Below the pieces are notes generated by a model. The model was not told the DNA's origin. It did no database searches and saw only the letters and a program-made list of their open reading frames with translations. Positions 1,602 through 45,263 of a stretch of 64,000 nt of DNA are shown piece by piece; position 1 is the first letter of the stretch; each line of letters starts with the position of its first letter. This DNA comes from Candidatus Nanoarchaeia archaeon (GTDB lineage Archaea; Nanobdellota; Nanobdellia; SCGC-AAA011-G17; GW2011-AR18): the NCBI GenBank assembly GCA_035289605.1, contig DATDWR010000020.1, positions 10,921 to 74,920 of the forward strand, written 5' to 3'. The translations under genes were made by a program, and so were the position numbers.

Positions 1602-1647
1602 AAACTAGAACTAGTATTTAGCCTTTTAATAATTTATGTTCTTAACT

Positions 1648-2004: not shown

Positions 2005-2036
2005 AATAAAATAAAAAATAGATTATTTATAAATAT

Positions 2037-3274: not shown

Positions 3275-3434
3275 TTTCTCGACTACAAAACCCCCTGCAA
3301 TTAACTACCCCTCAATAACTTCATGATAAAGTTTATATATGAGTGTAATTTGGACTTTATAAATGTTCCTATAGCTTGCTGCGGGCTTTTTTATGAAGAA
3401 ATAAGCTTATAAAGAAAAATCAAATCCAGGATAT

Positions 3435-4031
3435 ATGATAAAACACCTATTATTAATGATTATATTATGCAGCTCCATAGTATTAGCATACAATCCTTAT
3501 GATCCATTTACTCAAGTTGATTATGGGCAGAATATAACACTAAAATTATATCCTTCTTCAAGACAAAACATCAAAATCCATGAAGGAAGCGCTGTACAAT
3601 TCAGCGTTTACACCCCTGAAGACGCCATAAGATCCTATAATAATATAATAATAAAGGAAATAGGACAAGAAGAAACAATGACACTCCTCTCTGCAAAAGG
3701 GAGAAAATATGAAGAGATAAATTTAAAACTAGGACAAGACTACAAAGTAGACTTCAATGGAAGCATACCTTTCATGTTCATAAAAGAAGACACGCTACAC
3801 TATGAAGAAAATCCAAGAAATAGGTACATTGTATTATATTTCAATGTCCCACAATTTCAAGTGAAAAAAGCAGACTTGCCAACAGGAGATATTGTTATAG
3901 ACTTGCAAGATGTAGAAGGAATAGGCGGCAGAAAAAAAATATTCACACCAATAAGAATAATACTAATAGGATTGGGATTGTTAGCAATAATAGGAACATT
4001 CTTTTTATTCAGGAAATTAGAACAGCATTAA
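3435..4031 (+). CDS. hypothetical secreted protein with C-terminal membrane anchor
   Basis: N-terminal signal-like helix and a C-terminal TM (IILIGLGLLAIIGTFFLF) followed by basic residues. Confidence 0.5.
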   Translation: MIKHLLLMIILCSSIVLAYNPYDPFTQVDYGQNITLKLYPSSRQNIKIHEGSAVQFSVYTPEDAIRSYNNIIIKEIGQEETMTLLSAKGRKYEEINLKLGQDYKVDFNGSIPFMFIKEDTLHYEENPRNRYIVLYFNVPQFQVKKADLPTGDIVIDLQDVEGIGGRKKIFTPIRIILIGLGLLAIIGTFFLFRKLEQH

Positions 4032-4389
4032 GCGAGCCTTCCCTGCCAGGCCTGGAAGTTATCTTAACCTTCCCAAGCTTAGTCTCTACAATAGTACCTC
4101 TAGTTATAATATTCCTTCTGACAAAATGCCTATTAGCAGGACTATCAACAACAGTAACAAGCTCTGTTTTCTGGCACTTTCTTGTTTTAGGGTTTAAAAC
4201 ATTAACAATATTAGAAGACAAAAGGAAAGTATTAACATGGCCTCCCCTAGTTCTTCTCTGCTTAGCAGACAATGCACCAAGACCTGTAAAAGCAGGCAAA
4301 GAACCCTTGTTGTGCTTCTTCTTATTAGAAAAGGCCCTGTATCTTCCGCCTGTAACTTTTCTTAAAGAACGCTTTTGAGATATTGCCAT
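4009..4389 (-). CDS. rps8e: 30S ribosomal protein S8e
   Basis: MAISQKRSLRKVTGGRYRAF... is a typical eS8 N-terminus; 126 aa. Confidence 0.9.
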   Translation of the reverse strand: MAISQKRSLRKVTGGRYRAFSNKKKHNKGSLPAFTGLGALSAKQRRTRGGHVNTFLLSSNIVNVLNPKTRKCQKTELVTVVDSPANRHFVRRNIITRGTIVETKLGKVKITSRPGREGSLNAVLIS

Positions 4390-4497
4390 ACAAAAAAGGA
4401 TTAGCCTGTGATTTATAAATTTTTTTAAAGGAAAACTATCTAAGTTTTATTCAACACTTGAAGGAATACAACAGGAAACTTTAAATACGAAAACCAA

Positions 4498-4731
4498 GTG
4501 CCTACTCGCATGGAATTAAGGCCATTAGATACTTTAAATGAAGCAAGAGGAAAAAACGTAATAGTAGAGTTGAAGAATAACAAGCAGCTAATAGGCAAAC
4601 TAAAGTCATTTGATATACATATCAATACAGTTTTAGAAAGCTGCGAAGAAAAAATAGACGGAGAAACAAGAAGAAAACTAGGAACAGTCTTCATAAGAGG
4701 GGACACAATAATCTTTATATCAACAGCATAA
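4498..4731 (+). CDS. Sm-like (LSm) archaeal protein
   Basis: Sm1/Sm2 pattern: RPLDTLNEARGKNVIVELKNNKQLIGKLKSFDIHINTVLE...FIRGDTIIFIS. It lies upstream of L37e, as in many archaea. Confidence 0.85.
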   Translation: MPTRMELRPLDTLNEARGKNVIVELKNNKQLIGKLKSFDIHINTVLESCEEKIDGETRRKLGTVFIRGDTIIFISTA

Positions 4732-4744
4732 GGAGTTCTAAACA

Positions 4745-4945
4745 ATGACAAAGGGAACAGCGTCCATGGGCAAGAAGTCTGGAAGAAGAAACCTTGTCCA
4801 GAGATGCAGAAGATGCGGAAAAAGAAGCTACCATGTGAGAAACAAGACGTGTGCAAGCTGCGGATACGGAAAAACATCAAAATTAAGAAGATACAACTGG
4901 CAAAACAAGAGAAGAGGAAAAACTGTTGTAAGATATAGACTATGA
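4745..4945 (+). CDS. rpl37e: 50S ribosomal protein L37e
   Basis: MTKGTASMGKKSGRRNLVQRCRRCGKRSYHVRNKTCASCGYG carries the zinc-ribbon eL37 signature. Confidence 0.9.
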   Translation: MTKGTASMGKKSGRRNLVQRCRRCGKRSYHVRNKTCASCGYGKTSKLRRYNWQNKRRGKTVVRYRL

Positions 4946-5860: not shown

Positions 5861-7204
5861 ATGGCAGAAAACGACATATACAACAGTCAGGGAAAATATG
5901 AGAAATTTAAGAAAACCCTTAATCTACTAACAATAAAACCAAAAACAGAGAGCACCAGAAAACAATACTATTGCAAAAACAAAGCAAACCTAGAATACTT
6001 CAAAAGAATTTTCGCAGTATTTGAAGCAAAAGATACCAGCTACATAAGAAGACTAAGACTATTACAAACATTCAAGCTAATAAGCTACGCAACAGAAAAA
6101 AATCTAGCAGAATGTGACAGAAATGACATAGGAAAAATTGTAGGATTAATGCACCAGCACTACATAAGCCCAAAAAGCAAACAAGATTTCATAAGAGACC
6201 TAAAATATCTATGGAGAACATTATTCCCCGAAGTAGATGAAAGAGGAAGACCAGACGAAACAATAATGCCCTATGTCGTAAGGCATCTTTCAGCAACAAT
6301 AGACAAAAGTAGAGAGAAACTAAGAAACGACAGACTAACATGGGAAGAATTCGAAAAAATACTAAATTATTTTAATAGCGATACAAGAATGCAAGCTTAC
6401 TTATTTCTAGCTTTAGAAAGTTTAGGAAGACCACAAGAATTATTATACATTAAAGTAAGAGACGTAGAATTATACGACAACTATGCAAAAATCTACATAA
6501 GCGAACATGGAAAGGAAGGAACAGGATTCCTACAATGCATAGACTCATTCCCATACGTAAGCAAATGGTATAACGAACACCCATTCAAGAACAACAAAGA
6601 TACATTATTCTTCATAAACCTAGAAGGATCAACAGGAAGATACGAACAAATCAAGCCCAAAAATATCAATAAAGTATTAAAAACAGCATGCGAAAGACTA
6701 GAAATAAAGAAAAGAATAACTGCTTACAGTCTAAAAAGAAACGGAGTAACCTTCAGAAGACTAAGAGGAGACTCCGATGTTGAAATACAACACGCAGCAA
6801 GATGGACTTCAACTAAACAACTTAAAACATACGACATGAGCAATCAGGAAGACGCATTCAAAATGGAACTCGTAAAAAGAGGAATAATAAATAGCAAAGA
6901 TACAAAATTAGAACATTTAAAGCCAAGAATTAAAATGTGCCTATTCTGCAACACTAATAACAAACTAACAAACGAAGTATGTTCTAATTGTTCGAGACCA
7001 TTAGACCGAGAAAAAATAAGAGAACAAGAAAAGCTGAAGGAAAAATCTTACATTGAATTAAGAGAAGAATTAAATGCTATAAAATCTGAAGAAAATAAGA
7101 AAAGTTTAGAAGTTGTAAACAATTTCTTTCAACATAAAGAAATGCAAGACTTATTAAAAGCAGTTTATAAACTTCAGAAAGAAATGGATTTAATCAAAAG
7201 ATAA
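5861..7204 (+). CDS. tyrosine recombinase / phage-type integrase with C-terminal Zn ribbon
   Basis: Box I-like LESLGRPQELL, box II-like region ...QHAARWTSTKQLKTYD with the terminal catalytic Tyr context, and C-terminal CLFCN...CSNC. The gene starts ~70 nt after the tRNA. Confidence 0.85.
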   Translation: MAENDIYNSQGKYEKFKKTLNLLTIKPKTESTRKQYYCKNKANLEYFKRIFAVFEAKDTSYIRRLRLLQTFKLISYATEKNLAECDRNDIGKIVGLMHQHYISPKSKQDFIRDLKYLWRTLFPEVDERGRPDETIMPYVVRHLSATIDKSREKLRNDRLTWEEFEKILNYFNSDTRMQAYLFLALESLGRPQELLYIKVRDVELYDNYAKIYISEHGKEGTGFLQCIDSFPYVSKWYNEHPFKNNKDTLFFINLEGSTGRYEQIKPKNINKVLKTACERLEIKKRITAYSLKRNGVTFRRLRGDSDVEIQHAARWTSTKQLKTYDMSNQEDAFKMELVKRGIINSKDTKLEHLKPRIKMCLFCNTNNKLTNEVCSNCSRPLDREKIREQEKLKEKSYIELREELNAIKSEENKKSLEVVNNFFQHKEMQDLLKAVYKLQKEMDLIKR

Positions 7205-7372
7205 ATTTTCTTTTCCTTTATTTTTAATAAACCATTTTATAATATCCCGCAGTGTTACTGATAATTCATTATTTCCAGAAATATCTTCTAATTGACTAAA
7301 AGTATTGTTATCTATTCTAAAACTTAATTTTACTTTCTTTCTTTCATCCAACTTTCTATATTTTATAGTCAT
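7190..7372 (-). CDS. small ribbon-helix-helix-like DNA-binding protein (candidate excisionase or regulator)
   Basis: 60 aa with a beta-strand-then-helices pattern (KVKLSFRIDNNTFSQLEDIS...LRDIIKWF). Its start overlaps the stop of an upstream 38-aa ORF (ATGA). Confidence 0.35.
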   Translation of the reverse strand: MTIKYRKLDERKKVKLSFRIDNNTFSQLEDISGNNELSVTLRDIIKWFIKNKGKENLSFD

Positions 7373-7485
7373 TTTTTTAATGCTTGTAATTCAGCCTCAG
7401 CCTCTTCAATAGTCTTCCTAATATTATTCAATAATCTTGAATAGATATCTTCGATATCTTGCTCAGAAAATTTATTTTTACTCAT
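7369..7485 (-). CDS. 38-aa coiled-coil-like small ORF, translationally coupled to the RHH-like gene
   Basis: Own translation: MSKNKFSEQDIEDIYSRLLNNIRKTIEEAEAELQALKK. It is below the ORF-track size cut-off. Confidence 0.2.
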   Translation of the reverse strand: MSKNKFSEQDIEDIYSRLLNNIRKTIEEAEAELQALKK

Positions 7486-7508
7486 TTCTTAATACCTCTT
7501 TTAAGTAA

Positions 7509-7808
7509 TTCATTTTTAATAGACATATTGATAAAGAAGAAATTACAGTAATTATAGATCAAGAGGCTTATGATAAAGATAATGTTATTGAAATAGAGAA
7601 AGACTGGAAAATAATTACTCTAAACATAATATTTCCTATGGATGTTGTTGGAGTTACAGCAAAAATTAGCGGAGCACTAGCAAAAGAAGGAATAAGTATA
7701 ATGCCAATAGCAGCATTTTCCAAAGATCATTTCTTGATCAAAGATAAAGATTTAGATAAGGCAGTAAAAGTTTTAGAAAAAATTGGAGTAAGTGTAAATA
7801 ATAAGTAG
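7509..7808 (+). pseudogene. ACT-domain protein fragment (N-terminally truncated)
   Basis: The frame is open from 7509 with no ATG until 7638. Translation ...WKIITLNIIFPMDVVGVTAKISGALAKEGISIMPIAAFSKDHFLIKDKDLDKAVKVLEKIG looks like the C-terminal half of a small ACT-domain protein. Confidence 0.4.
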
Positions 7809-7814
7809 AAGAGT

Positions 7815-8477
7815 TTATTTTTTTAACTTGCAAATATATCCTATGCCTGCTTTTTTGATTTCTAGCGTTTTTAGTTTTGTTTTTTTGAATATTTCTTGTA
7901 GTTCTTGTTTTGAGAATTGTTCTGATGCGTTTTCTCCTTCTTTCTCTCCAGCAAAAAATACTGTTGTTCCTTTGATTTCTTGTATTGGTGTTTTTATTTT
8001 TTTATATAATTTCATTCTTTCTTCAAAAGCATCTTCGGAATAAACACTTATTATAATAAATCCATTATTTTTGACTACCCTTTTCATTTCTTCCAAAGCT
8101 TTGAACTTATAATTATAGAAGTTTGCAAAAGTCCCAATACACAAAACAAAATCAAAATAATTATCTTCAAATGGTATACTTCTAACGTCAGCCAGTAAAA
8201 ACTTTAGTTCAGGATAAGATTTAAAATTCTCTTTAGCATCTTTAACTGCCTTAGCTTCATTATCTATACCTATTAAATTTTTTGTCTTGTTTAATAATTT
8301 TAGCAATACTCTGCCATTTCCACAACCTACTTCTAGGACTTTTGAATCTTGTGTTATTAGATTATTAAGATATTTTTCTTCTTCATCAAACCATTTCCTG
8401 TAGGACTCTGGCATATCTTTCAGTACTTTTTCCCAAAAAGAAATATTCTTCATTGTCATTATTTTGCTAGTCTCCAT
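7815..8477 (-). CDS. class I SAM-dependent methyltransferase
   Basis: Motif I VLEVGCGNGR plus downstream acidic-loop pattern. It overlaps the upstream TrmB gene by 19 nt. Confidence 0.8.
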   Translation of the reverse strand: METSKIMTMKNISFWEKVLKDMPESYRKWFDEEEKYLNNLITQDSKVLEVGCGNGRVLLKLLNKTKNLIGIDNEAKAVKDAKENFKSYPELKFLLADVRSIPFEDNYFDFVLCIGTFANFYNYKFKALEEMKRVVKNNGFIIISVYSEDAFEERMKLYKKIKTPIQEIKGTTVFFAGEKEGENASEQFSKQELQEIFKKTKLKTLEIKKAGIGYICKLKK

Positions 8478-9199
8478 AGCTCTTCAAAATATCTCTTTTG
8501 GTTTTCTGCCATTTCTTCATCTTCTATCATTACTGCAAATGGCTCTTTAGTCCAAGATTGTAGAACTACTTTATTTCCATAAATTAATGTGGCTGTAGGC
8601 GATTCTAGTTCTATCGGCATAAATTTGTATTCTGTAAGTTTTAATGATTCTGTCCTTGTTTCTACTTTATTTCTGGCTTGTTGTGTGTTGTTATAAAGTA
8701 TTTTCATTACTACTTTTTGTTTTATTCTTTTTTTATGCCATTCCTCCATAAATGCGGGTATTACCTCAAATGATGATCTTGAGCTGCCGTATGCCAAAAA
8801 TTCTTTTACTTTTGATCTTAATATATTGTTCATTACAGTTTTCATTCCCTCTTTTCCTTCAAAGATTTCTACTTTTGGTCTTTTTATTCCTTTTAGTTTA
8901 TGTAATTTTTCAAGTTGAGACATAACTTTATTAATACTCTCTTGTTTTTCTTTTAATATTCTAATTAATTCTTTTGGATCTGCAGCCCGGAAGAATTTTT
9001 TATTGGTCTTTATTGCATAAGAAATCAATCCTAAATCAATTAATCTTTCTAATATATCGTAAACTAATGTTCTTGGAAGATTTGCTTTCAATGATATTTC
9101 GCTTGCTAAAGAATCTCCTAGTTCTAGACATGCTAAATAGGCTTCTGATTCTTTTTTCGATAATCCGAATTTCTCTAAGCTTTCTATTAATTCATTCAT
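8459..9199 (-). CDS. TrmB-family transcriptional regulator (paralog 1)
   Basis: N-terminal wHTH FGLSKKESEAYLACLELGDSLASEISLKANLPRTLVYDILERLIDLGLISY plus a TrmB-type C-terminal domain. Confidence 0.8.
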   Translation of the reverse strand: MNELIESLEKFGLSKKESEAYLACLELGDSLASEISLKANLPRTLVYDILERLIDLGLISYAIKTNKKFFRAADPKELIRILKEKQESINKVMSQLEKLHKLKGIKRPKVEIFEGKEGMKTVMNNILRSKVKEFLAYGSSRSSFEVIPAFMEEWHKKRIKQKVVMKILYNNTQQARNKVETRTESLKLTEYKFMPIELESPTATLIYGNKVVLQSWTKEPFAVMIEDEEMAENQKRYFEELWRLAK

Positions 9200-10731: not shown

Positions 10732-11358
10732 ATGAAAAGAACAAATTGGGATCAGTTAGCTGAAGAATATGCAAGTAGGGACTTTCCGGAAAGAGATTGG
10801 AATTTTGGTTATGAAAATGTTTTAAACCTATTAAGAAAAATTGCTGGGGAAAAAATATTGGATTATGGCTGTGGTTCTGGAAAATTTTCAAGAGTTCTTG
10901 CTGAAAGAGGAGCGCAGGTTTTAGGAATAGATACTAACGAAACAATGTTAGATTTAGCAAGAAGACAAGATTGTAAAAACATATATTATGGATTACCAGA
11001 GGATATTTCAAGTTTAGGCTATTTTGATGGAGCCGTTCTTAATTATGTTATTTGTGGCATGAGAGATGATATAGAAGTAAAAGAGGTTTTAAGAGGCATT
11101 TATACACAATTAAAACTAAACGGTTTACTTATTGTTCTTGATCCGCATCCTGCAACAAGAACCATTAGAACTGATGGAGAACCAAATGAAGTAGTTTTAG
11201 AAGGCATGACGAAACCAGTATTAGACTATTGGCGCCCAGTAGATAAATATATTTCTATTGTTTCTAGGGTAGGATTTACAATAGATAATGTTCTCGAGCC
11301 GAAAAATGAAGAGGGCATTCCTCAAATGCTTATAATAAAAGGAAAGAAAAATGTATAA
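10732..11358 (+). CDS. class I SAM-dependent methyltransferase
   Basis: Motif I ILDYGCGSGKFS. It is divergent from TrmB paralog 2 and overlaps the next gene by 8 nt. Confidence 0.8.
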   Translation: MKRTNWDQLAEEYASRDFPERDWNFGYENVLNLLRKIAGEKILDYGCGSGKFSRVLAERGAQVLGIDTNETMLDLARRQDCKNIYYGLPEDISSLGYFDGAVLNYVICGMRDDIEVKEVLRGIYTQLKLNGLLIVLDPHPATRTIRTDGEPNEVVLEGMTKPVLDYWRPVDKYISIVSRVGFTIDNVLEPKNEEGIPQMLIIKGKKNV

Positions 11359-12073
11359 AAATCATTTTCCGTTTGGAATACAAGTTTATGGAGAAACTAT
11401 AGGCGAAATTTGGATAGATATCATTGAAGCAGTAATCAAAGAAGGAAAAAACTGTTTTGATGAAGGTAGAAAAAGAAAAGCCTTAGAAAATGTTCGATTT
11501 AAGTCAAATACTCAAATAATGCCGGATGAATTAATATTAAAATATGGGGATGAAGAAAACCTTAATTCTATGTTAGATCTTACTTTTAAAGAACCAAAAA
11601 TGTTTGATTGTGATATTACTCCAAGTTTTAGTTCCGGAGCAAAAAGTTATTATCAAAGAATAAAAGAAGGGAAATTAATTGAATATGTAATAAAACGTTT
11701 AAGTCAAATCCCTGAGAGTAAAAAAGCAGTAATAGTATTCCCCAATTATGATGATTATCAACAAGTTCTAAATAATATGAAAGACGATTATTTACCCTGC
11801 TTAATTTCTATACAATTTCGCTTAGTTAAGTCAGATGATAAAAATCATATTCTAAATGCAACTTGTAATTTTAGATCATTAGACATCTTACAAAAAGGAC
11901 ATGGAAATTTATATTCTATAGCAATGATGAGCAAGATTATTGCAGAAGAATTATCTAAAAATTTGAAAACCAATGTGGATGTAGGATTCTTAGATGCCAT
12001 GATAACAGATGTGCATATTTATGAAAATACAATTGAAGAAGCGAATAAAATTTTAAATCCTATAAACAAATAA
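11351..12073 (+). CDS. thymidylate synthase (ThyA)-fold pyrimidine C5-modifying enzyme
   Basis: Motifs align to ThyA: DDYLPCLISIQF (catalytic Cys context PC..QF), NFRSLDILQKGHGNLYS (RS.D..G..N) and DVHIYENT (D.H.Y.N). Confidence 0.6.
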   Translation: MYKNHFPFGIQVYGETIGEIWIDIIEAVIKEGKNCFDEGRKRKALENVRFKSNTQIMPDELILKYGDEENLNSMLDLTFKEPKMFDCDITPSFSSGAKSYYQRIKEGKLIEYVIKRLSQIPESKKAVIVFPNYDDYQQVLNNMKDDYLPCLISIQFRLVKSDDKNHILNATCNFRSLDILQKGHGNLYSIAMMSKIIAEELSKNLKTNVDVGFLDAMITDVHIYENTIEEANKILNPINK

Positions 12074-12183: not shown

Positions 12184-15100
12184 TTACCCGAAGATTTTAT
12201 TGATATATTCTATTATTTGTTCCCTGCCTATTATCTGAATTCCAAATTTTTTGTATAGTTTAGATTTTTTAATTTCAGTAAGAACAATCACACAATTATT
12301 TCCATACTCATTCTTTACTGATGTAAACTTGTCTTTTATTCTGTCTTTATGCTTTTTATATCCTTCTCCTGTTTCAATTTCAATAGCGTATCTCTTTCCT
12401 TTATTGTCTGTAAATATTATGTCTGGTTTTACTGTTAGGTGTCTTTCAACGTTCTTAGTTTTAGTCAAGATATATTGGTAAATAATAGAGGTTACGAATG
12501 AGTGCATGATGCTTTCTGGCAGTTCTTCTTTTACTAAATATTCGTTAGGATTTCCTTTAGTTGTGAACTTATGGAATTTTCCAGGCTTATATCCACGATC
12601 TGTTAAGTATTGTGCTTGTTCTATTGTTATCTTGTTTCTTTCATAATAAGGAATAGCTGTATCTAGTTTTGCATCTATTTTTTTCTTGTCTAAAGGTTTT
12701 CTTTCTTTTCTTCTTTCACTTTCTAGTATTTCATCAGGATTAGTAGTAATTAGTTTATGTTCTTCTTCACTTGCTTTAATCTCTAGTTCCTGATGTTCAT
12801 TATCTAAAATTAATAATCCTGATCCTATGCTGCAAGTTAAAAGAATGTTTTTTTCTGAAGGACTAAGATTGAATACTCTTGCAATACTGTCAATAACAGC
12901 TGGTTTTTGTCTTAACAAAAAAGTATAAGATGAGTTTGCTAGTGCTGCGTGTCCGGCTTTACTATTAACCAAATCAGCAACATCCTGAGTAATCATTAAC
13001 AAACCTAAATTAAATTTTCTGCAAGTTTTTACAATTTCAAAAATGTATCCTTCTTCTTCGCTCCTAGCTAGTAAACTCCATGCTTCATCAAGAACTAAAA
13101 GTTTTCTTGTCAAATCTTTTTTCATTCTAGTATAGATATAATCAAGAACAAGGAACATTATTATTGGCTTTACCTGCTTTGGCATGAAACCTATATTAAA
13201 GCACACAAAATCATTACTGAAATCAATATTAGTCTGCTTGTCTAAGAATCCAAAAACTCCATCTTTAGTATAAATGTATAATCTGTTTATCAAAGCAGTA
13301 TATGTTGACTTTTCAGTATTGTCTGCTTTACTCATCATATCAATTAAGGTGTTGTATAAACTGCTTATTGTTGGTGTTTGTATTCCGTCATAGTTTCCTT
13401 TCTTTCTTATACCGTCTCCATTATATGTTTCATCTACAGCCTTGTCTAAAACTCCTCTTTGAACTTCTGAAAGCTCTCCAAGCATTATCTTGAATAAATC
13501 TATTAACTGTAATCTTTTTTCTTCATAAGAATGCCCCATTAAGTCTAAAGGATTGATTATTGTTGTAGAATCTTTAGAAATTGTTATTATTTGTCCTTTG
13601 CATTCTTTAGTTATTGCTGCATACTCTCCCTGTGGGTCAATAATTAGTATTTTAGTTCCCTGCATGAACAATCTTGTAAGTAATAATTTAGTAAAATAAG
13701 ACTTTCCACCCCCACTAGTAGCTAAAATTAACCCATTAGCATTAGTCAACTTGTAAAGGTCTTTAATGAAAGGTATCTTATTTTTATTTAAACCAAGCAT
13801 TATTCCTTCAGGCTCACAACTCAAAAAAGGGCTAGTAAAAGGAAAGAAAGCACTAAGAGCTTCAGTTGTAATATTTCTTTTTAATTTAAGATAGTCTTCT
13901 CCAACTGGAATTATGCTCTTGTAAGCATCACTTTGCCTGAATATCGGAACTTTAGGCTGAATCATCAAAGAATTTAGTTCACTGGAAACTTTTTGTGATA
14001 ATAAATCCAAATCTTCATATGGCTTAATTTTTTCTTTATACTCTAATAACTTATTTATTCTTTTATTATACTTTTCAGGTTTTTCTTTTTCTCCCTGAGG
14101 ATTTACTTCTTTAATTTTATTAATGTCTTGTTGTGTCAGCTTGTAGTTTTCTGTCTTCTTAGTCTTACAATTAATATAAAGTGAAACGTTGAAAAGTTTT
14201 TGTTTTCCTTTCTGCAACTCTTCCAGAACTTTTCTGGTTCCTGAATACTTTATTTCTAAAGATGGATTTATTATTCCTTTAAGGCTTTCAGAAAACATGT
14301 CAGCTCTCTGCTTTTTTAGTTCATTATTTAATTGTATAAGCATGAATTCTATAGGAAAAGGCTCTAAGTGAATACTAATATCAAAATTATCATTACTACT
14401 AATAATCTTATCCAAGAAACCTTTCTCTACACTATTAGGATAGCCTACAGCTGCAACAACCCTGTTCAAGCAATTATTAACTTCAAGATGATTCTTATTA
14501 TTAATTATAAGTTTAGGACTAACTATACAACCATTCTTTATTTCTCCCTCTTTATTATTTAATGGCTTGAAGTCTTTATACTGGTTAAAATAATTATATA
14601 ACTTGTTTAGCAAAACTTTATTCTTTTCTGTGCTTTCTACCTTGCTTACTTTTAAACCTATACTTCTTAACTTGCTTTCTACTATGTTTACTTCAATATC
14701 TAAGCTATTCTTTTCTTTTACTACAATGTAGAACTTCCTGTTCTTAATTTCATTAACACTAATACTATTATTAATAAAATTCTTATAATCATTAAATAAC
14801 TTGTTAAAATCATTCCTTAACTTATTCTTTAATACATTAAAATGGTCTTCTAAGCTAATATTTTCAGAAGCTATTAATATCTGTACTGGAAAGTCTATAC
14901 TGTTCAAGAATTTCTGGAAACTTTGAATAATAACCTCTTTTTCTTCATCACTCTTAATATTAAAATTGATAGGCTGAACTTCTAATAAAACTATTCTTTG
15001 ATTCTTATTATTAATAATATAACTGTCTGTAACTTCATTAATTCCTATAAAGCTCTTCATTGAACTAGAAAAGTCATCTGTCCTTCTAAACTTGAAAAAA

Positions 15101-15324
15101 TGAATAAAATTCTTAATCCAGACTTTAGCACTAAAAAACATAAATAATATTGCTATAATAGTTATGAAAATAATTAAAGTAAACTTTAGATTATTATTAC
15201 TTATTAACTTGAAAATTATTGTACTAAAACCTAAAGAAACACCTGAATAAATCAACTGTTCGAAAGTCAAACTAAATATGATCTTCTCTTTATGCTGCAA
15301 AGGCGGTGGAATTTCGTAAGACAT
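12184..15324 (-). CDS. VirB4/TrbE/CedB-type conjugation ATPase with N-terminal membrane hairpin and C-terminal PD-(D/E)XK-like domain
   Basis: Walker A ATSGGGKSYF, Walker B LLVLDEAWSLL and MITQDVADL are present. The N-terminus has two TM helices (VirB3-like). The C-terminal ~190 aa contain ESIMHS...VKPDIIFTDNKGKRYAIEIETG. Confidence 0.8.
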   Translation of the reverse strand: MSYEIPPPLQHKEKIIFSLTFEQLIYSGVSLGFSTIIFKLISNNNLKFTLIIFITIIAILFMFFSAKVWIKNFIHFFKFRRTDDFSSSMKSFIGINEVTDSYIINNKNQRIVLLEVQPINFNIKSDEEKEVIIQSFQKFLNSIDFPVQILIASENISLEDHFNVLKNKLRNDFNKLFNDYKNFINNSISVNEIKNRKFYIVVKEKNSLDIEVNIVESKLRSIGLKVSKVESTEKNKVLLNKLYNYFNQYKDFKPLNNKEGEIKNGCIVSPKLIINNKNHLEVNNCLNRVVAAVGYPNSVEKGFLDKIISSNDNFDISIHLEPFPIEFMLIQLNNELKKQRADMFSESLKGIINPSLEIKYSGTRKVLEELQKGKQKLFNVSLYINCKTKKTENYKLTQQDINKIKEVNPQGEKEKPEKYNKRINKLLEYKEKIKPYEDLDLLSQKVSSELNSLMIQPKVPIFRQSDAYKSIIPVGEDYLKLKRNITTEALSAFFPFTSPFLSCEPEGIMLGLNKNKIPFIKDLYKLTNANGLILATSGGGKSYFTKLLLTRLFMQGTKILIIDPQGEYAAITKECKGQIITISKDSTTIINPLDLMGHSYEEKRLQLIDLFKIMLGELSEVQRGVLDKAVDETYNGDGIRKKGNYDGIQTPTISSLYNTLIDMMSKADNTEKSTYTALINRLYIYTKDGVFGFLDKQTNIDFSNDFVCFNIGFMPKQVKPIIMFLVLDYIYTRMKKDLTRKLLVLDEAWSLLARSEEEGYIFEIVKTCRKFNLGLLMITQDVADLVNSKAGHAALANSSYTFLLRQKPAVIDSIARVFNLSPSEKNILLTCSIGSGLLILDNEHQELEIKASEEEHKLITTNPDEILESERRKERKPLDKKKIDAKLDTAIPYYERNKITIEQAQYLTDRGYKPGKFHKFTTKGNPNEYLVKEELPESIMHSFVTSIIYQYILTKTKNVERHLTVKPDIIFTDNKGKRYAIEIETGEGYKKHKDRIKDKFTSVKNEYGNNCVIVLTEIKKSKLYKKFGIQIIGREQIIEYINKIFG

Positions 15325-15338: not shown

Positions 15339-16037
15339 TCAATATTTTTTAGCTACTAAATAAGAAACATCACAATTTTTTATGTAATTCTTCCAGAATT
15401 CTTTTCCATATAATTTAATTCCTTCTGAAGACACTATTGGCTTAAACCATTTGATTGAGTTAAACCCCGCTTCTTTTAGAAGTTTTTCTATATTTTCTTT
15501 TGTATGAAAAAAAGAACTTAAAGTCATTAAATATTTTTTATTGTATAAATGTATTAATATTACGGCTCCTTCTTTTAATTTTGGTGTAACTTCTTTTATT
15601 GAACCATATTCTCTTGAATCTTGATAAGTAGAATTAGGCATATCAAAAATACAGACTATTTTTCCAGATTGGTTTAATGAATTATAAAATTTTTTGAATA
15701 ATCTACTTAAACCATTATACTTTTCATAATTTAATACAAAAGGAGCAACAATAATATCAGATTTAGGATAATCAAAATTATTCATATTAGCAATTATGTA
15801 ATTTGTGTTTGGTAAAGAATTTCTCTTAGCGCTTTCTATAGCTTCTTTTGCTATATCTATACCATAAATTTTCTTAGAATCTCTTGCTAGATTTTTAGTG
15901 AAAAATCCATCACCACAACCAATATCAATTAAAGTTTTATTCTTGATACTGCCACATAGTTTTATGACTGTAGGAAGCATACTATATTTCTTATCTGGCT
16001 TATCGTGAGTCCTATAATATTTATTGAATTTTTGCAC
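15339..16037 (-). CDS. class I SAM-dependent methyltransferase
   Basis: Motif I LIDIGCGDGFF. It overlaps the upstream transporter gene by 17 nt. Confidence 0.75.
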   Translation of the reverse strand: MQKFNKYYRTHDKPDKKYSMLPTVIKLCGSIKNKTLIDIGCGDGFFTKNLARDSKKIYGIDIAKEAIESAKRNSLPNTNYIIANMNNFDYPKSDIIVAPFVLNYEKYNGLSRLFKKFYNSLNQSGKIVCIFDMPNSTYQDSREYGSIKEVTPKLKEGAVILIHLYNKKYLMTLSSFFHTKENIEKLLKEAGFNSIKWFKPIVSSEGIKLYGKEFWKNYIKNCDVSYLVAKKY

Positions 16038-16719
16038 TTTTCCCGTACATTATTATTCTATTTATATACATGAAAGGAATATCTATAACTGCAACAACCC
16101 ATTTGATTACGATTGTCCCTATAATTATCGGAAGTAAGGGTTGAACACCATAGAATGCTATTGAAGCAAAGATTACGCTATCTAACGCCATTGAAGGGAT
16201 AGAACTTAAAGCATTCCTTGCCCATAAATGTTTTCCATTTGTCAGTTTTTTAAATAATGCAAAAATGTAAGCATCAGCATTTTCACTAATTAAGAAAGCG
16301 CACCAACTTGCCAAGATAATTCTTGGAACAAAACCAAAGATTTTCTGAAATATTTCTTGATTATTCCAAAAAGGAGCTGGAGGCAGACTTATAGCAATCC
16401 AAATAAAGAAGGTTACAGCTATTTGTGTTATAAAAGCTATAAAAATCATCTTCTGAGTTTCTTTTCTTCCAAACCTCTCATTTACTATATCTGTTAACAA
16501 AAATGTAAGAGAAAAAACTATGACTGGAGAACCTGTATAAAACGTGACAAATCCAAAATCAAACGCTGCAATCTTAAAAGCAATAATATTACTGATTAAA
16601 ACAAAAGACACATACAAACCAATCAATGCATCAGGAGTGTTATATTTTTTAACATACCAAGAGCCAAAGAATGTAAAAGCACTTACAACCAAAATCCATA
16701 AAATTATAATTAATAACAT
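16021..16719 (-). CDS. YhhQ/VUT-family (queuosine-precursor type) transporter
   Basis: ~6 TM, 232 aa, with LLTDIVNERFGRKETQKMIF and ENADAYIF / ALDSVIF patterns as I recall for the DUF165/YhhQ family. Confidence 0.55.
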   Translation of the reverse strand: MLLIIILWILVVSAFTFFGSWYVKKYNTPDALIGLYVSFVLISNIIAFKIAAFDFGFVTFYTGSPVIVFSLTFLLTDIVNERFGRKETQKMIFIAFITQIAVTFFIWIAISLPPAPFWNNQEIFQKIFGFVPRIILASWCAFLISENADAYIFALFKKLTNGKHLWARNALSSIPSMALDSVIFASIAFYGVQPLLPIIIGTIVIKWVVAVIDIPFMYINRIIMYGKSAKIQ

Positions 16720-16788
16720 TAGTTTTTTAACACTCCAATCTAAAGATTAATACAAAATATTTAAATAATAGTTCTCCCACTTAGGAGT

Positions 16789-17526
16789 ATGGCAATAGAA
16801 GATTTAAAGTTCTTAGACTTGACAGATAATGAAATAAGGGTATATTTAGCCATTCTAAAAAATGGGAAACTTACTGGCACTAAGATAAAACAAATAACCA
16901 GTATAGCCAACTCAAGAGTTTATTCAGCAATAGATTCACTAATATCAAAAGGAATAATTATTTATGAAAAACACCAAAAAGGAAGATTATACGCAGCTAT
17001 TAATCCTGAAATATTAAAAGAATTAATGAAAGAAAGAATGGAAAAAATAGAAAAAACCATACCAATACTAAAAGAATTACAGAGTAATGAAAAAACTGAA
17101 ACAGAAAGTGCAGTATTTGAAGGACTACAAGGATTTAGAACAGCATTAATAAAGTTGGCAAACGAGTGTCCAATAGGAGAAACAATACATATCATAGGAT
17201 TTTCAAATCAAAACTACAAAAATGAAAAACTGGCAGCAATATTAAACACTGTAAACAAAATATCAATGAAAAGAAAACACAAATTCAAAATGATACTGGA
17301 TGACGAAGAAAATAAATTCTTCGAAAAAAGAAAAAAGGAAGGATTATCAGAAATAAGATTCATGGGAAACAACTTCAAAAGTCCAGCAGCAATAGACATA
17401 TTCCAAGACTATGTATACATATTACTATGGGATGAAAACCCCTATGCATTTATAATAAAAAACAAAAACATAGCAGAAGGATTCAAAATATACTTCAACT
17501 TCCTATGGAACATGGCAAAAAAGTAA
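16789..17526 (+). CDS. TrmB-family transcriptional regulator (paralog 3)
   Basis: LDLTDNEIRVYLAILKNGKLTGTKIKQITSIANSRVYSAIDSLISKGIIIY wHTH. It is divergent from the transporter-methyltransferase pair. Confidence 0.8.
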   Translation: MAIEDLKFLDLTDNEIRVYLAILKNGKLTGTKIKQITSIANSRVYSAIDSLISKGIIIYEKHQKGRLYAAINPEILKELMKERMEKIEKTIPILKELQSNEKTETESAVFEGLQGFRTALIKLANECPIGETIHIIGFSNQNYKNEKLAAILNTVNKISMKRKHKFKMILDDEENKFFEKRKKEGLSEIRFMGNNFKSPAAIDIFQDYVYILLWDENPYAFIIKNKNIAEGFKIYFNFLWNMAKK

Positions 17527-18435
17527 TTAAACTCCTCCAGCAGCCATCATAATTCCTGTTTTTATTTCAGAATAGACTTCTCCCATTCCTGATTTGTTAA
17601 TTATGAACTTAATCAGTAATAAGAATACTAAGTCTACAAGCAAAAAACTAACAATGTAAAATATTATTGTAAAGTGTTCTACTATTGGAGCAGTAACAAG
17701 CAAACTACAACCTAAAATTATTATAGAACAAATAAAAGGAATAAAAATAAGCATAACAATCAAGTTAATTATAAGCTTGCCATAACTTCTAAGGAAATGA
17801 ACAAAATAAAGAAATATTCCTATAGGAAAGAATATCACTCCAAGACTAACAAAAACCCATCTGGCTAATAAAAAAATACAAGTAATAATCAAGACTAACA
17901 CATAAGGAATAATCATCAAAATCTGCAATAAAGCATTACCAAAACTATCACTAGTAACAGTAAAAAAAGAAGGACTAACATTACTAAAAACATAACCAGT
18001 CAAGCTAGAATTTAATTCAATTAGTAAATTGTATAAATAAAAACTAGAACTAACCAAAACCAAAGCAATAATCATGTTCTTTATTGATTCTTTAGCATGA
18101 TGTCTTTTAACTATATCTTCACTGTTCAAAATAAAAACACTACCTGAATACAAAAGAAAGAAGATATAGAATACACTAATAATCCCAATAATAGTAAACC
18201 AGGCACTCTCAAAAACACCAGTATTGGGAATAGTAGTCATCAAGTCAACAACCCAACTAATAAAAGGCTGAGCAGCTAATCCTGTAGTATGAGAAACTAT
18301 TCTTGCTACATCACCAAGACAACTCAAAAGAGAGAAAAAAGAACAACCAGAATCATTACTATCTGAAGAATCAGCTAAAGACATAGGCAAGACTAAAAGA
18401 AGAACTACAAATAAAGTTAGAAGTTTAGATTTCAT
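17527..18435 (-). CDS. polytopic membrane protein with signal peptide (VirB6/TrbL/CedA-like candidate)
   Basis: Signal peptide, a short Ser/Asp/Cys-rich ectodomain, then ~6-7 TM helices. The assignment rests on topology and context only. Confidence 0.4.
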   Translation of the reverse strand: MKSKLLTLFVVLLLVLPMSLADSSDSNDSGCSFFSLLSCLGDVARIVSHTTGLAAQPFISWVVDLMTTIPNTGVFESAWFTIIGIISVFYIFFLLYSGSVFILNSEDIVKRHHAKESIKNMIIALVLVSSSFYLYNLLIELNSSLTGYVFSNVSPSFFTVTSDSFGNALLQILMIIPYVLVLIITCIFLLARWVFVSLGVIFFPIGIFLYFVHFLRSYGKLIINLIVMLIFIPFICSIIILGCSLLVTAPIVEHFTIIFYIVSFLLVDLVFLLLIKFIINKSGMGEVYSEIKTGIMMAAGGV

Positions 18436-19486: not shown

Positions 19487-19999
19487 ATGAAAACTAAAAC
19501 CCTAATAATAACTGTAGTTGTAATAATTTTTATTTTAATTGCAGTTCTTGCTACAGCCTATCTAAAACCCTATTATGATTACAATCAGGATAAGAAAAAA
19601 GCATACGATAAAACAAAAACCTATCCCTCAGTTTTAGACTTTAAAGAAATTACAATAAGTGAAATTAATAATAAAAATTTAACTGGAAATTTTAATGTTG
19701 AAGCCTTTGTAATACAAAAATTTGTTTGTGCACCATGTTCACCTTATATGTTCTGTAAAATATGTAAACCTGATGGAATATTAATTTCAGAAAATTTAAT
19801 TCAAAAAGGAGACTATATTCAATTAAATAAAGAAAGAATAAAACTATTAGATTTAGAAACAACAAACCCCAACCAATTTGAAATCGGGCAAAAGTATAAA
19901 TTCTCAATAGAAATAATTGAAAAAGAAAAAGTCTATAGTGATAAAGAAAGAATAGTATTAAAATTAATAAGATTATTAGGATATGAAAAATTAATTTAA
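19487..19999 (+). CDS. hypothetical N-terminally anchored protein
   Basis: Single N-terminal TM; contains a CxxC...CxxC cluster (CAPCSPYMFCKIC). Confidence 0.5.
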   Translation: MKTKTLIITVVVIIFILIAVLATAYLKPYYDYNQDKKKAYDKTKTYPSVLDFKEITISEINNKNLTGNFNVEAFVIQKFVCAPCSPYMFCKICKPDGILISENLIQKGDYIQLNKERIKLLDLETTNPNQFEIGQKYKFSIEIIEKEKVYSDKERIVLKLIRLLGYEKLI

Positions 20000-21181
20000 A
20001 CTTCTCACAACAAAATGCTTAATTATTCTATAAACCAAATACAAGATAAATAATAGCGCAATTAGTTTTAGTATCCATGTTAAGTCATAATTGAATTCTC
20101 TTACTTGATAATTGCTTACAGTGTTATTCTCTAAATTAATGTTTAAGTTACAATCATGATTAAGATTATAAAAATGATTAAACAATATTAGTTTACAGTT
20201 ATTAATATTTTTAACATATAAACTGTTGTCTGTTCCTGCAATTAAGTTATCAGTTTTCTTAATGTTTACTTTGTCAGCTTTCAAAACTGCAATATAAAAT
20301 GGTTTTTTAGTAAATTCTACTGAGTATATATATTTTTGTTCTTTATAGTAAGAATTGTCAAACTTTATTATCAAACTTGAATAGTCTTTTGCTTCATAGT
20401 TTAACTTTATTGTATTAAAATTGTTTTCTACTGCTTTAATGCTAGCGCTTGGTTTATTATCATAATACTTTACATTAATACTGTCATTTAATTCTATATT
20501 ATCTTTAAGATATTCTTTATTCTTGTACTCACACTTGTAATTGTAACTCGTGCACTGCCCTCTTCTGTTCCTATTAGTGCAATACTTATTCCATACACTA
20601 TTATCTTTCTTAATATTAACACTAACTTCTAATTTAGTGGTTATTAATGAATCCTGATTTACACTTATAGCTTGTACTTTATTACTTCCTTGCACCTGAT
20701 TATTAACTAAAATGCTTAATTTAGAATTGTTTTCTATTAACTCATAAGTTATCTTACAATAACCATTACTGTTTTCTTGATAATTATTGGCTTGATAATC
20801 TTGTGGGACTATAACTTTATAATAATAATCACTTAACACTAAAGAATTACTAGTGACGTATAAATTATTATTTTCTAAAACACTAGGACTTATAGCATTC
20901 AAAGAAACCCAAGCAGACTTAATATAAATAGAGTCTACTACTAATAAATTTTCCAGACTAGAATTAACTTTAATATTAGAGTTATAATTTAGAATGAAAT
21001 CATGATTAGGGAAACTAGAATAATTATAAAACAAACCTGAAAGTAAGAAATATTTTTGGGATTCATTCATTGAAGAACTTAATATATTATTGCACTGTTG
21101 CAAGTTAGAAGCTAAAGAACAATCAAAAGAAGCAGAAGCTAAAGGAAGAATTACTAAGAAAATTAAGAGAAAATATTTCAT
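19991..21181 (-). CDS. Asn/Ser-rich secreted protein with C-terminal TM anchor
   Basis: Signal peptide and a C-terminal helix (WILKLIALLFILYLVYRII) followed by basic residues; 396 aa. Confidence 0.55.
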   Translation of the reverse strand: MKYFLLIFLVILPLASASFDCSLASNLQQCNNILSSSMNESQKYFLLSGLFYNYSSFPNHDFILNYNSNIKVNSSLENLLVVDSIYIKSAWVSLNAISPSVLENNNLYVTSNSLVLSDYYYKVIVPQDYQANNYQENSNGYCKITYELIENNSKLSILVNNQVQGSNKVQAISVNQDSLITTKLEVSVNIKKDNSVWNKYCTNRNRRGQCTSYNYKCEYKNKEYLKDNIELNDSINVKYYDNKPSASIKAVENNFNTIKLNYEAKDYSSLIIKFDNSYYKEQKYIYSVEFTKKPFYIAVLKADKVNIKKTDNLIAGTDNSLYVKNINNCKLILFNHFYNLNHDCNLNINLENNTVSNYQVREFNYDLTWILKLIALLFILYLVYRIIKHFVVRSLN

Positions 21182-22018: not shown

Positions 22019-23005
22019 GTGTATATGAAGGAATTAGACCTTAAAGACTATAAAATTTTGTATGAACTAGATGTTAATGCCAGACAAAATGATTCTGAAA
22101 TAGCCAAAAAAGTAGGCTTAACAAGAGACTCAACCAGATACAGAATAAACAAATTAGTCGAAGAAGGTTATATCTATTATTTTATGACACTAATTAATTC
22201 AATGAAATTAGGTTACAATTGGTATAGGACATTTTTCAAATTTCAAAACTTAACAATTGAGAAAGAAAAAGAAATTATTGATTATCTAAAAGAAAAAACA
22301 AGCTGGATTTCCAAAGTAGAAGGATTTTGGGATCTAAACACAGGAATTTTTCTCGAAAACGTTTATGAGTACCGTGATTTTATTAATGAATTTTTATTGA
22401 AATATAGTTTATTCATCGAAAGATACAATGTTTCTATTGTTACAAGAGAATGGATTTACTGCCATGATTATCTTCTTAATAAAAAACAAAAGACCAACAA
22501 ACCAATTTTAATGGGATTTAATAATAAAAGTGAATATAAAGCAGAGAATATAGATAAAATGGATTATAAAATTCTCAAAACAATACTGAAAAATGCCAGA
22601 ATGAAAAGTATCGATATAGCAAGAGAAATAGGAACAACAGAAATAGTTATTAGATATCGTATCAAAAAGTTAATACAAAAAGGAATAATAATAGGATTCA
22701 AGCCATTTCTTAATATCAATAAACTTGGTTATACCTATTTTAAGCTTCATATAACATTACAAAATTTAACTAAAGAAAAAAAGAACTCTATTATAAATAA
22801 TATTCACCAACATCCCAACACAATCCACATGACAGAACTAGTGGGTGGTGCTGATATAGAATGCGAGTTTCAAGTAAAGACTAACGAAGAATTTTATCAA
22901 CATATACAAGAATTAAGAACAAAATTCAGTGATATTATAAGAGATTACAAATTTATGCAGTATACTAAAGAGTACAAATTTACTTATCTTCCTGAAATTT
23001 TTTAA
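22019..23005 (+). CDS. tandem double Lrp/AsnC-type HTH regulator
   Basis: Two repeats of the pattern D.KIL..L..NAR....IA...G.....YRI.KL...G.I (aa ~6-55 and ~180-230). The likely ATG is at 22025. Confidence 0.65.
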   Translation: MYMKELDLKDYKILYELDVNARQNDSEIAKKVGLTRDSTRYRINKLVEEGYIYYFMTLINSMKLGYNWYRTFFKFQNLTIEKEKEIIDYLKEKTSWISKVEGFWDLNTGIFLENVYEYRDFINEFLLKYSLFIERYNVSIVTREWIYCHDYLLNKKQKTNKPILMGFNNKSEYKAENIDKMDYKILKTILKNARMKSIDIAREIGTTEIVIRYRIKKLIQKGIIIGFKPFLNINKLGYTYFKLHITLQNLTKEKKNSIINNIHQHPNTIHMTELVGGADIECEFQVKTNEEFYQHIQELRTKFSDIIRDYKFMQYTKEYKFTYLPEIF

Positions 23006-23132: not shown

Positions 23133-23468
23133 TTATGTTGTCAAATAATTGACTATTATTGGTGCTACCCAGATTAATCCTAGACCTATTACTATGTACA
23201 TTACTTTTGTTTTAGCTTGTTCTTTTTCTGAAGGATTATTGTTCATGAACATCTGAACAGCTGCAAATACTATAAACAGTAAAGCTAAGACACTAGCAGC
23301 ATACTTTACAAAATTATAGACTTTCATTACAGGTGCTAATATCTGGTTGAATGTGTTAACATCTGTTGAGCTTGGCCCTGTTATTGTTACAGCATGAACA
23401 CTATAGGCTAAAGGCAATACCATTAGTATTAGTGCTATTGTGCAGTTAAGCAGGTTGTTTTTCTTCAT
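23133..23468 (-). CDS. VirB2/TrbC/CedA1-like pilin candidate
   Basis: 111 aa with a signal peptide ending VHA. Two hydrophobic helices (AASVLALLFIVFAAVQMF and VMYIVIGLGLIWVAPIIV) are separated by a short charged loop. This is the conjugative-pilin topology. Confidence 0.5.
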   Translation of the reverse strand: MKKNNLLNCTIALILMVLPLAYSVHAVTITGPSSTDVNTFNQILAPVMKVYNFVKYAASVLALLFIVFAAVQMFMNNNPSEKEQAKTKVMYIVIGLGLIWVAPIIVNYLTT

Positions 23469-24117: not shown

Positions 24118-24131
24118 TGTTCCCCGCATTA
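24118..24131 (+). repeat. candidate attR core TGTTCCCCGCATTA
   Basis: Exact copy of 5777-5790. Its last 3 nt are the stop codon (complement) of the 248-aa membrane-protein gene. Confidence 0.6.
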
Positions 24132-35339: not shown

Positions 35340-35434
35340 TGGGCCCACCCAGATTCGAATTCCCCGATCATTTTCAGATCTCTGGGGACCTCTTCGACGT
35401 CAACGAAGTGTCATAACCACTAGACCATGAGCCC
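35340..35434 (-). tRNA. tRNA-Val(GAC) with 22-nt insertion at the T-stem/T-loop junction
   Basis: Reverse complement folds as GGGCUCA UG GUCU AGUGGUUA UGAC A CUUCG UUGACGU CGAAG AGGUC CCCAG [agatctgaaaatgatcggggaa] UUCGAAU CUGGG UGGGCCC A. Confidence 0.85.
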
Positions 35435-45252: not shown

Positions 45253-45263
45253 TTTAGTTAAAA

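Follow-up and report, generated by a model that had tools for sequence, protein, structure and literature searches.

The DNA analysed here (the window) is a stretch of 64,000 nucleotides from a Candidatus Nanoarchaeia archaeon (contig DATDWR010000020.1, positions 10,921 to 74,920 of the forward strand), and the gene in question is a virB4-fusion open reading frame (ORF) at 12184-15324 on its minus strand. The encoded protein of 1046 aa consists of a VirB3/PrgI-like hairpin, a VirB4/TraC-type ATPase, a Lys/Glu-rich linker and a C-terminal nuclease-like module, the last of which is the main subject of this work. A preliminary description, made from the sequence without database searches, had presented the gene as a VirB4-type ATPase fused to an Hjc-like nuclease domain of the PD-(D/E)XK type. 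The ORF was found as described there, with the quoted peptide strings in place, and the range assigned to the domain (12184-12760) does contain the last 191 codons and the stop codon, but it is one base off the frame, and it is 12187-12759 that translates cleanly. The identical sequence is available as a public protein (P0236) under the NCBI name "DUF87 domain-containing protein" of Candidatus Nanoarchaeia, and related proteins are annotated as DUF87, ATP-binding or VirB4-like and nothing further. The host genome has a GC content of about 30% and encodes TFIIB, Orc1/Cdc6 and intron-containing tRNAs.

The assignment of the protein to the VirB4/TraC type, already made in the preliminary description, is supported by Pfam and NCBIfam families, by the Walker motifs, by similarity to a solved VirB4 and by the VirB2 and VirB6/TrbL-like genes in the neighbourhood. 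The P-loop ATPase domain (residues 437-860; 12745-14016, minus strand) matched P-loop_TraG (PF19044, 4.9e-28) as well as DUF87 (PF01935) and AAA_10 (PF12846), and both Walker A (A535-S542, ATSGGGKS) and Walker B (742-747, LLVLDE) are intact. The Thermoanaerobacter VirB4 of PDB entry 4ag5 was matched by sequence across residues 506-860 (E 5.3e-32). The NCBIfam VirB4 models aligned from residue 437 onward, and the ATPase part scored 289.6 bits (4.9e-86) with the CD1110 family, the equivalog cutoff of which is 325, and 292.6 bits with the Mbov_0397 family, where the equivalog cutoff of 590 was not reached. Judged by these scores, the VirB4 of the window is a divergent relative and no equivalog of the NCBIfam VirB4 families. 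The ATPase domain is preceded by a TraC-like VirB4 N-terminal/middle region (residues ~100-436; 14017-15027, minus strand), for which a precomputed Pfam match (PF26593) exists on the identical protein, and by a predicted PrgI/VirB3-like membrane hairpin (residues ~9-72; 15109-15300, minus strand). The two helices previously attributed to this hairpin correspond to the two N-terminal hydrophobic segments of most VirB4-fusion homologues, but in the window protein itself the feature is weak, as the PrgI match remained below the threshold (E 6.2e-4, 20.7 bits against a cutoff of 27) and the hydrophobicity scan revealed one clear segment, residues 43-71.

The conserved end of the ATPase (HKLITTNPDE) is followed by the Lys/Glu-rich linker (residues 861-892; 12649-12744, minus strand) and then by about 155 residues, which constitute the module. 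Among homologues the linker is variable in both length and sequence, with a mean p-distance of 0.60 and a spacing of 48-72 aa between TTNPDE and the ES..H motif of the module. Sequence searches with the module of the window protein gave nothing significant in Pfam, NCBIfam, PDB sequences, PADLOC (anti-phage defence) or PHROGs (phage families). The match to Vsr at E 0.067 is only a hint, a sequence profile of the module matched no PDB chain, and the PADLOC and PHROGs profiles produced marginal noise in two homologues only. The structure was predicted with AlphaFold2 from an alignment of 86 sequences. For residues 890-1046 the model reached a mean predicted local distance difference test score (pLDDT) of 94.3 and a predicted template modelling score of 0.88, and it shows a beta-alpha-beta-beta unit followed by an alpha-beta-beta-beta-alpha-beta-alpha-beta-alpha arrangement; the core alone (933-1046) was modelled with a pLDDT of 90.9. 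The small beta-alpha-beta-beta subdomain (residues 893-935; 12520-12648, minus strand) carries a conserved FFR...L...YLL..GY pattern, and its strands and helix in the model (E4-6, H12-20, E23-28, E38-43) have pLDDT values above 90. We infer that it is a nucleic-acid-binding or docking element.

The remaining part of the module (residues 936-1046; 12187-12519, minus strand) is predicted to form the core of the PD-(D/E)XK fold, since the alpha-beta-beta-beta-alpha-beta arrangement is present in the AlphaFold2 models and the Foldseek comparison agrees with it. The top matches in the PDB were all proteins of the restriction-endonuclease fold, namely NucS/EndoMS, YaeQ, Card1, Can2, AF2093, Hjc, ERCC1 and MUS81, with a probability of 0.99 for NucS (2vld), a TM-score of 0.58 for Card1, and rank 16, a probability of 0.98 and a TM-score of 0.49 for Hjc (4tkd). 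Among viral models, the matches were restriction endonucleases, endonuclease I, VRR-NUC and Mrr. Structure prediction and Foldseek thus bear out the fold proposed in the preliminary description. The label "Hjc-like", however, turned out to be imprecise, because NucS, Card1 and Can2 rank above Hjc in structure and CoiA is the nearest family by sequence.

The residues of the putative active site were located on the model, and their conservation was counted in 236 homologues aligned to the hidden Markov model (HMM) of the domain, with denominators that vary by position; all codons given here lie on the minus strand. Helix alpha1 contains E937-S-I-M-H941 (12502-12516), an E-[SGT]-x-x-H motif in which the Glu is present in 215/220 and the His in 222/222 sequences. 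Strand beta2 opens with the "PD" motif P967-D968 (12421-12426; D in 232/232, P in 212/232), and strand beta3 carries E982-I-E984-T-G986 (12367-12381), an ExE variant of (D/E)xK, with both glutamates in 232/232 and G986 in 230/233 sequences. The candidate for a relocated catalytic lysine is K999 (12328-12330), situated in helix alpha2 (model helix 104-118) and conserved in 231/235 sequences. In the window protein, the KPD and AIEIETG strings correspond to K966-D968 and A980-G986, respectively. The family signature may therefore be written as E-[SGT]-x-x-H ... P-D ... A-[ILV]-E-[VI]-E-T-G ... K, that is, a PD-ExE site with a lysine fixed about 15 residues later. The Asp at the start of beta2 and the acidic residue of beta3, by which PD-(D/E)XK proteins are recognised, are both without exception in this alignment (D968 and E982). 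The E-x-x-H, PD and E-I-E motifs pointed out earlier are the ones described here, and the E/D/E positions proved invariant or nearly so across the 236 sequences; the motif is far from a chance occurrence. Neither an unrelated fold nor a lack of conservation at the catalytic positions, the two results that would have contradicted the preliminary description, was encountered. The doubt expressed at that time about the canonical lysine was justified as well, as the ExK position is occupied by E984, an arrangement also seen in ExE sites of the BamHI type. On the evidence of the alignment, K999 may be the substitute for the ExK lysine, as in relocated-lysine variants (PMC1189080). Among 116 full-length fusions, the mean pairwise difference amounts to 59% in the module and 29% in the ATPase. 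The module is probably catalytic, because exactly the D, E and E residues together with the H and K are near-invariant while the rest of it diverges by ~59%; such a pattern argues for a signature of catalysis rather than of binding.

The fusion is not a peculiarity of the window. An exhaustive profile search returned 747 cluster representatives of the module at E<=1e-3. The PD...ExE-TG motif, written as a degenerate DNA pattern, was used to collect loci from species-representative genomes; it gave at least 120 matches, and 120/120 were confirmed by the HMM. These 120 loci come nearly all from Woesearchaeota, Pacearchaeota and Nanoarchaeota, with a few from Micrarchaeota and Iainarchaeota and some from oddly labelled bins, and they were sorted into 77 VirB4 fusions, 35 non-fused complete genes and 8 unclassifiable cases. 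When the ATPase part was used as the query, the module was present in 118/119 best VirB4 homologues (49-84% identity), the sole exception being truncated within the linker. Moreover, the divergence of the module is correlated with that of the ATPase (r = 0.62-0.78). The nearly complete carriage and the correlated divergence indicate, therefore, that the fusion is old and stable in this clade, and it is the rule in the VirB4 proteins of Woese-, Pace- and Nanoarchaeota. The module was absent from PLSDB plasmids (tblastn, 72,556 plasmids), GenBank phages and IMG/VR viral contigs, and for this reason it corresponds to no known plasmid or virus gene.

The fused virB4 is, in related loci, the last gene of a conserved operon of a type IV secretion system (T4SS), in which it is accompanied on the same strand by genes for a pilin of ~110 aa, a surface protein of ~440 aa and a VirB6/TrbL-like protein of ~270-300 aa. 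All four genes occur in the window, on the minus strand. The VirB2-type pilin (23133-23468, 111 aa) matched Pfam T4SS_pilin (7.2e-15) and TrbC/VirB2 (1.5e-7), both above the cutoff. The surface protein (19991-21181, 396 aa) has a signal peptide and a C-terminal hydrophobic segment, and is accordingly predicted to be secreted and C-terminally anchored; its family is found upstream of virB4 in 17 related loci. The VirB6/TrbL-like polytopic membrane protein (17527-18435, 302 aa) has a signal peptide and about 5-6 hydrophobic segments and gave a weak T4SS_pilin match, with a weak TrbL_3 match on the identical gene; in 34 related loci a member of this family immediately precedes virB4 in the same orientation, and the two genes often adjoin. 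A double winged helix-turn-helix regulator of the AsnC/HTH_24 type (22019-23005, plus strand; Pfam HTH_24 1.6e-23) represents a family found near virB4 in 6 related loci. Neither a second ATPase (coupling protein) nor a relaxase was detected among the recurrent neighbours or the scanned ORFs of the window, and the remark of the preliminary description that a relaxase is missing holds for every window ORF scanned. Downstream of the operon, the common neighbours in related loci are restriction-modification methylases, a reverse transcriptase of the group II intron type and other island-type genes.

Judged by sequence, the CoiA nuclease is the nearest known family, though marginally, and the module appears to be its distant relative and no member of it. 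In a Pfam scan of 86 homologues, CoiA_nuc (PF06054) was matched by 32/86 and AHJR-like by 12/86, all weakly. Two stand-alone homologues passed the CoiA gathering threshold by a narrow margin (scores of 21.0 and 21.7 against 20.3 bits), over 51/158 profile positions that extend from alpha1 to beta3. This region includes the catalytic motifs E-S-x-x-H, PD and E-x-(Q/E), and an ExK lysine is absent from both families. The module of the window protein itself has no match to PF06054, and its family has an invariant PD-ExE instead of PD-ExQ. The active site of CoiA is of the PD-ExQ type, and a conserved basic residue occupies a relocated-lysine position (PMC1189080); the enzyme nicks supercoiled DNA and cuts junctions of single- and double-stranded DNA in natural transformation (bioRxiv 10.1101/2024.02.06.579203). 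It acts in horizontal DNA transfer (S. pneumoniae, B. subtilis), which is a further point of likeness. However, the CoiA-type N-terminal zinc finger and C-terminal extension are missing from the module, and CoiA is a soluble competence protein of Bacillota, whereas the module is archaeal and either fused to VirB4 or paired with an integrase. The best structural matches, NucS/EndoMS (2vld, 5gke), Card1/Can2 and Hjc (probability 0.96-0.99), have the alpha-beta-beta-beta-alpha-beta core in common with the module, but differ from it by an identity of 11-20%, by the Glu at the lysine position of the module and by their accessory domains. NucS/EndoMS was matched neither in Pfam nor in PDB sequences, and its C-terminal nuclease core alone superposes. 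Hjc gave no Pfam match, its tetrad K is replaced by E984, and the likeness to 4tkd is at the level of the fold; the E...D...E-x-K spacing of Hjc resembles that of the module.

As regards known transfer systems, the ATPase core, the TraC-like N-domain, the PrgI/VirB3-like hairpin and an operon that includes genes for a VirB2-like pilin and a VirB6-like channel are common to the window system, the MPF-FATA VirB3-VirB4/CD1110-type systems, the Ced/Ted systems and the T4SS of Patescibacteria. The Ced/Ted and most Patescibacteria systems have no relaxase, as is the case here, and Ced/Ted also lack VirD4 (PMC12102498, PMC9905601); archaeal conjugative plasmids, too, have no recognised relaxase (PMC9905601, PMC12857230). 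A C-terminal nuclease-fold domain is undescribed, in the searchable literature, for any of these systems. A precedent, by function as described, for a restriction-fold nuclease that serves as a relaxase is provided by the MOBC relaxases (TraX of pAD1, MobC of CloDF13), which are related to PD-(D/E)XK proteins and process conjugative DNA without a detectable covalent intermediate (PMC12857230). In contrast to the module, these bacterial proteins are not fused to VirB4 but stand alone and cooperate with a VirD4 coupling protein. The HerA-NurA pair, proposed as the generator of single-stranded DNA for archaeal Ted transfer (PMC9905601), likewise joins a hexameric translocase of the FtsK/HerA superfamily to a nuclease that cuts the threaded DNA, but NurA, a subunit of its own, adopts an RNase H-like fold, while here a PD-(D/E)XK domain is fused to a membrane-bound VirB4.

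The non-fused copies of the module have two forms, a soluble one of ~165-215 aa and a membrane-anchored one of ~270-360 aa that begins with two transmembrane helices and has a charged/coiled linker. They cluster mostly together, and their ratio of nonsynonymous to synonymous substitution rates (dN/dS) is 0.13-0.24. Of the non-fused genes, 23/38 have a tyrosine integrase gene at a distance of no more than 1.5 kb, compared with 1/77 of the fused ones (Fisher p = 3e-13), and in 21 of the 23 it lies directly upstream on the same strand, with gaps from -12 to ~500 nt and several stop/start overlaps. In one locus (L009), a 5.1-kb segment that contains both the integrase and the module gene is delimited by 47-nt direct repeats, one copy of which overlaps a tRNA-Gly gene at its 3' end, and in two others (L037, L106) the gene order is tRNA-integrase-module. 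The module is therefore a mobile building block with two uses: it forms the tail of VirB4, or it accompanies an integrase within small elements integrated at tRNA genes.

Several further arrangements were observed around the integrases. A compact recurrent unit, in which a short tyrosine integrase gene and the domain gene behind it face a second tyrosine integrase gene and a conserved gene of ~128 aa (int -> domain <- int <- 128-aa gene), is present in L047 (2309-5144), L122 (384-3885), L003 (7392-9866) and L038 (1993-5346). In L001 (5418-11453), an integrase-domain cassette (6826-8504) is located between two genes of RCC1/WD40-repeat surface proteins with common repeat units, as if it had been inserted into an array of repeat-protein genes. 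N-terminal fragments of integrases are fused to T4SS genes or abut them, as in the protein P0102 (361 aa) and in L030, where the fragment (4335-4871) stands beside virB4 (1383-4334). There are also module ORFs that start exactly at the end of the VirB4 ATPase (...EDEH...) with no ATPase upstream, such as P0004 in L005 (2672-3319). These cases suggest that some integrase elements recombine within or beside virB4, possibly through a partition of the integrase gene of the SSV type.

The intact-looking active site, the nearest relatives, which are nickases or structure-specific cleavers, the lack of a relaxase and a coupling protein and the position of the module behind integrases are the reasons for which a role in cutting or nicking DNA is favoured. 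The explanation that is tentatively preferred, on the basis of comparative sequence data and a structural model, is that the module may be a catalytically competent metal-dependent endonuclease carried by the motor, which would nick or cut the transferred DNA and so replace the step of relaxase and VirD4. The last ~155 residues would then represent a previously unnamed family of metal-dependent PD-(D/E)XK endonucleases, distantly related to CoiA. Because the VirB4 ATPase domain is cytoplasmic, the C-terminus of VirB4 should be cytoplasmic too, and there the module would be suspended by the charged, flexible linker from VirB3-VirB4, the sole ATPase of a minimal DPANN T4SS, whose other components are a surface protein, a VirB6-like channel and a VirB2 pilin and which has neither VirD4 nor a relaxase. 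In a hexameric motor, up to six nuclease domains could be placed at its mouth, the entrance of the channel, where they might nick or cut the DNA translocated by the motor in a structure- or site-specific manner and hold it there. In this way, the tether would supply the processing of DNA and the coupling of substrate, which in bacteria are provided by the relaxase together with VirD4, by a logic similar to that of HerA-NurA. The tRNA-integrated elements, which have no T4SS of their own, carry a stand-alone module behind the integrase and in this arrangement resemble the bacterial integrative mobilisable elements, in which an integrase is combined with a relaxase and a resident T4SS is borrowed. 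A bolder version of the proposal is rather doubtful: the module would be the missing DNA-processing enzyme of archaeal type IV transfer, a hydrolytic "relaxase equivalent" fused to VirB4 that needs no coupling protein, and the integrase-module cassettes would be archaeal mobilisable elements that dock their DNA on the resident T4SS, possibly through heterodimers with the copy borne by VirB4.

Several results weigh against the preferred explanation. The lysine of (D/E)xK is replaced by the invariant E984, the module of the window protein remained below every Pfam threshold, and the Foldseek statistics (E 1e-4 to 1e-1, TM 0.4-0.58) stay at the level of the fold, which means that the module has no close solved relative. 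A hydrolytic nuclease cannot religate DNA, and therefore the full relaxase cycle would be unexplained; no oriT-like site was identified. The operon of the window is moreover split, because the virB6-like gene and virB4 abut or overlap in most relatives, and here the interval 15339-17526 contains genes for a methyltransferase, a Vut_1 transporter (vitamin/queuosine-precursor type) and a TrmB regulator. Finally, by analogy, a chromosomal, conserved and minimal operon resembles the Ced/Ted importers and the Patescibacteria T4SS and is unlike a conjugative element, and on account of this likeness a role in import is about as plausible as one in export. According to such a scheme, the system would be an importer, and the tethered nuclease would cut incoming host DNA or RNA, either for nucleotide salvage in a nucleotide-auxotrophic epibiont or for CoiA-like recombination, while the copies on mobile elements would likewise process arriving DNA, in entry exclusion or establishment. 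This is a serious alternative, although taken as a whole a somewhat unlikely one. The operon lacks VirD4 and is widely conserved, import is the function of Ced and Ted, the archaeal VirB4 systems that have been characterised (PMC9905601), and the T4SS of Patescibacteria, which do without relaxases, have been tied to host dependence and to the uptake of host macromolecules (PMC12102498, PMC12857230, bioRxiv 10.64898/2026.06.21.733656). CoiA works on internalised DNA, and the cytoplasmic C-terminus of VirB4 is the place where an imported nucleic acid would exit. However, bulk degradation is usually performed by non-specific nucleases, whereas the structural neighbours of the module are structure-specific nickases and cleavers, and a lack of specificity would make the soluble stand-alone copies of mobile elements toxic. 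A feeding role, furthermore, does not predict a tight operon with an integrase, and the module matches no known defence family.

Two other explanations deny the module a catalytic role in transfer. The domain might be a non-catalytic adaptor for DNA binding or protein docking, similar to the gamma domain of FtsK, which talks to Xer recombinases, and might couple tyrosine recombinases or uncut DNA to the motor. Several points would suit an adaptor: many PD-(D/E)XK domains bind without being active, the module lacks the canonical lysine and has a small N-terminal beta-alpha-beta-beta subdomain, and it is paired with a pump of the FtsK/HerA superfamily or with tyrosine recombinases. Nevertheless, the metal-binding positions D, E and E, together with H and K, are conserved almost absolutely although the domain differs elsewhere by ~59%, which makes this improbable. 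It is very improbable that the integrase-linked copies are remnants, namely displaced 3' ends of virB4, or homing-endonuclease-like passengers with no role in the T4SS. This reading draws on the ORFs that begin in the VirB4 tail (P0004, P0002, P0040), on P0102, which joins the N-terminus of an integrase to a VirB4 tail, on the integrase fragment that abuts virB4 in L030 and on the one VirB4 truncated in the linker; an integrase upstream on the same strand would also suit an attachment-site (att) junction. The non-fused genes, however, occur in elements bounded by direct repeats at tRNA genes, away from virB4, some of them overlap the stop codon of the integrase gene by 3-12 nt in the fashion of an operon, and the forms with two transmembrane helices have N-termini of their own that do not derive from VirB4. 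Displaced virB4 3' ends were rejected on these grounds as a general account of the integrase-linked copies, and the remnant reading is largely refuted for L009, L037 and L106. The clustering of most non-fused copies and their dN/dS values, which alone are not decisive, also speak against it, as does the presence of the fusion in 118/119 of the closest VirB4 proteins.

VirB4 ATPases, VirB3-VirB4 fusions and PD-(D/E)XK nucleases are already known. A nuclease-fold tail on VirB4, or the module family itself, has no description for DPANN or other archaea in the searchable literature, the coverage of which is incomplete. The VirB4-nuclease architecture is real, widespread and well supported, and the function proposed for it is plausible. 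How T4SS without a relaxase acquire or process nucleic acids is an open question, and the nuclease-fold domain fused to VirB4 is a concrete candidate for this step, because throughout a large DPANN radiation a putative active site that looks intact is attached to the system's single ATPase. The family, so far unannotated and comprising ~750 clusters at 50% identity, connects T4SS motors with tyrosine-integrase elements, and D968, E982, E984 and K999 are targets for point mutation. If import were the true function, the system would bear on the acquisition of nucleotides by ultra-small symbionts.

Some other features of the window deserve mention. A divergent thymidylate-synthase-like gene (11351-12073, plus strand; partial Pfam match, E 9e-12) lies directly downstream of virB4 in convergent orientation; this gene could matter should the system be used to acquire nucleotides. 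A block of higher GC content (24129-33992, minus strand; 0.36-0.40 against ~0.29) codes for a polytopic membrane protein of 248 aa and for three proteins with signal peptides (1884, 676 and 480 aa). Pfam matched none of them, and the block, which adjoins the T4SS genes, is possibly an island for cell-surface or host-interaction functions. A tyrosine integrase of 447 aa is encoded at 5861-7204 (plus strand), ~5 kb from the 3' end of virB4, and clusters broadly with the short integrases located beside non-fused module copies in other loci; no convincing att repeats were found for it. A 31-nt direct repeat, 90% identical, occurs at 43500-43530 and 45253-45283, 1,753 bp apart, and contains the 3' end of a tRNA (43511-43598, minus strand). 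No second tRNA was detected at the distal copy, 45253-45283. The repeats bracket three small ORFs, one of them LAGLIDADG-like (43589-44266), and the whole looks like a miniature element integrated at a tRNA gene. Two intron-containing tRNA genes, which ARAGORN missed in its bacterial mode, are located on the minus strand at 37973-38112 (140 nt) and 35340-35434 (95 nt).

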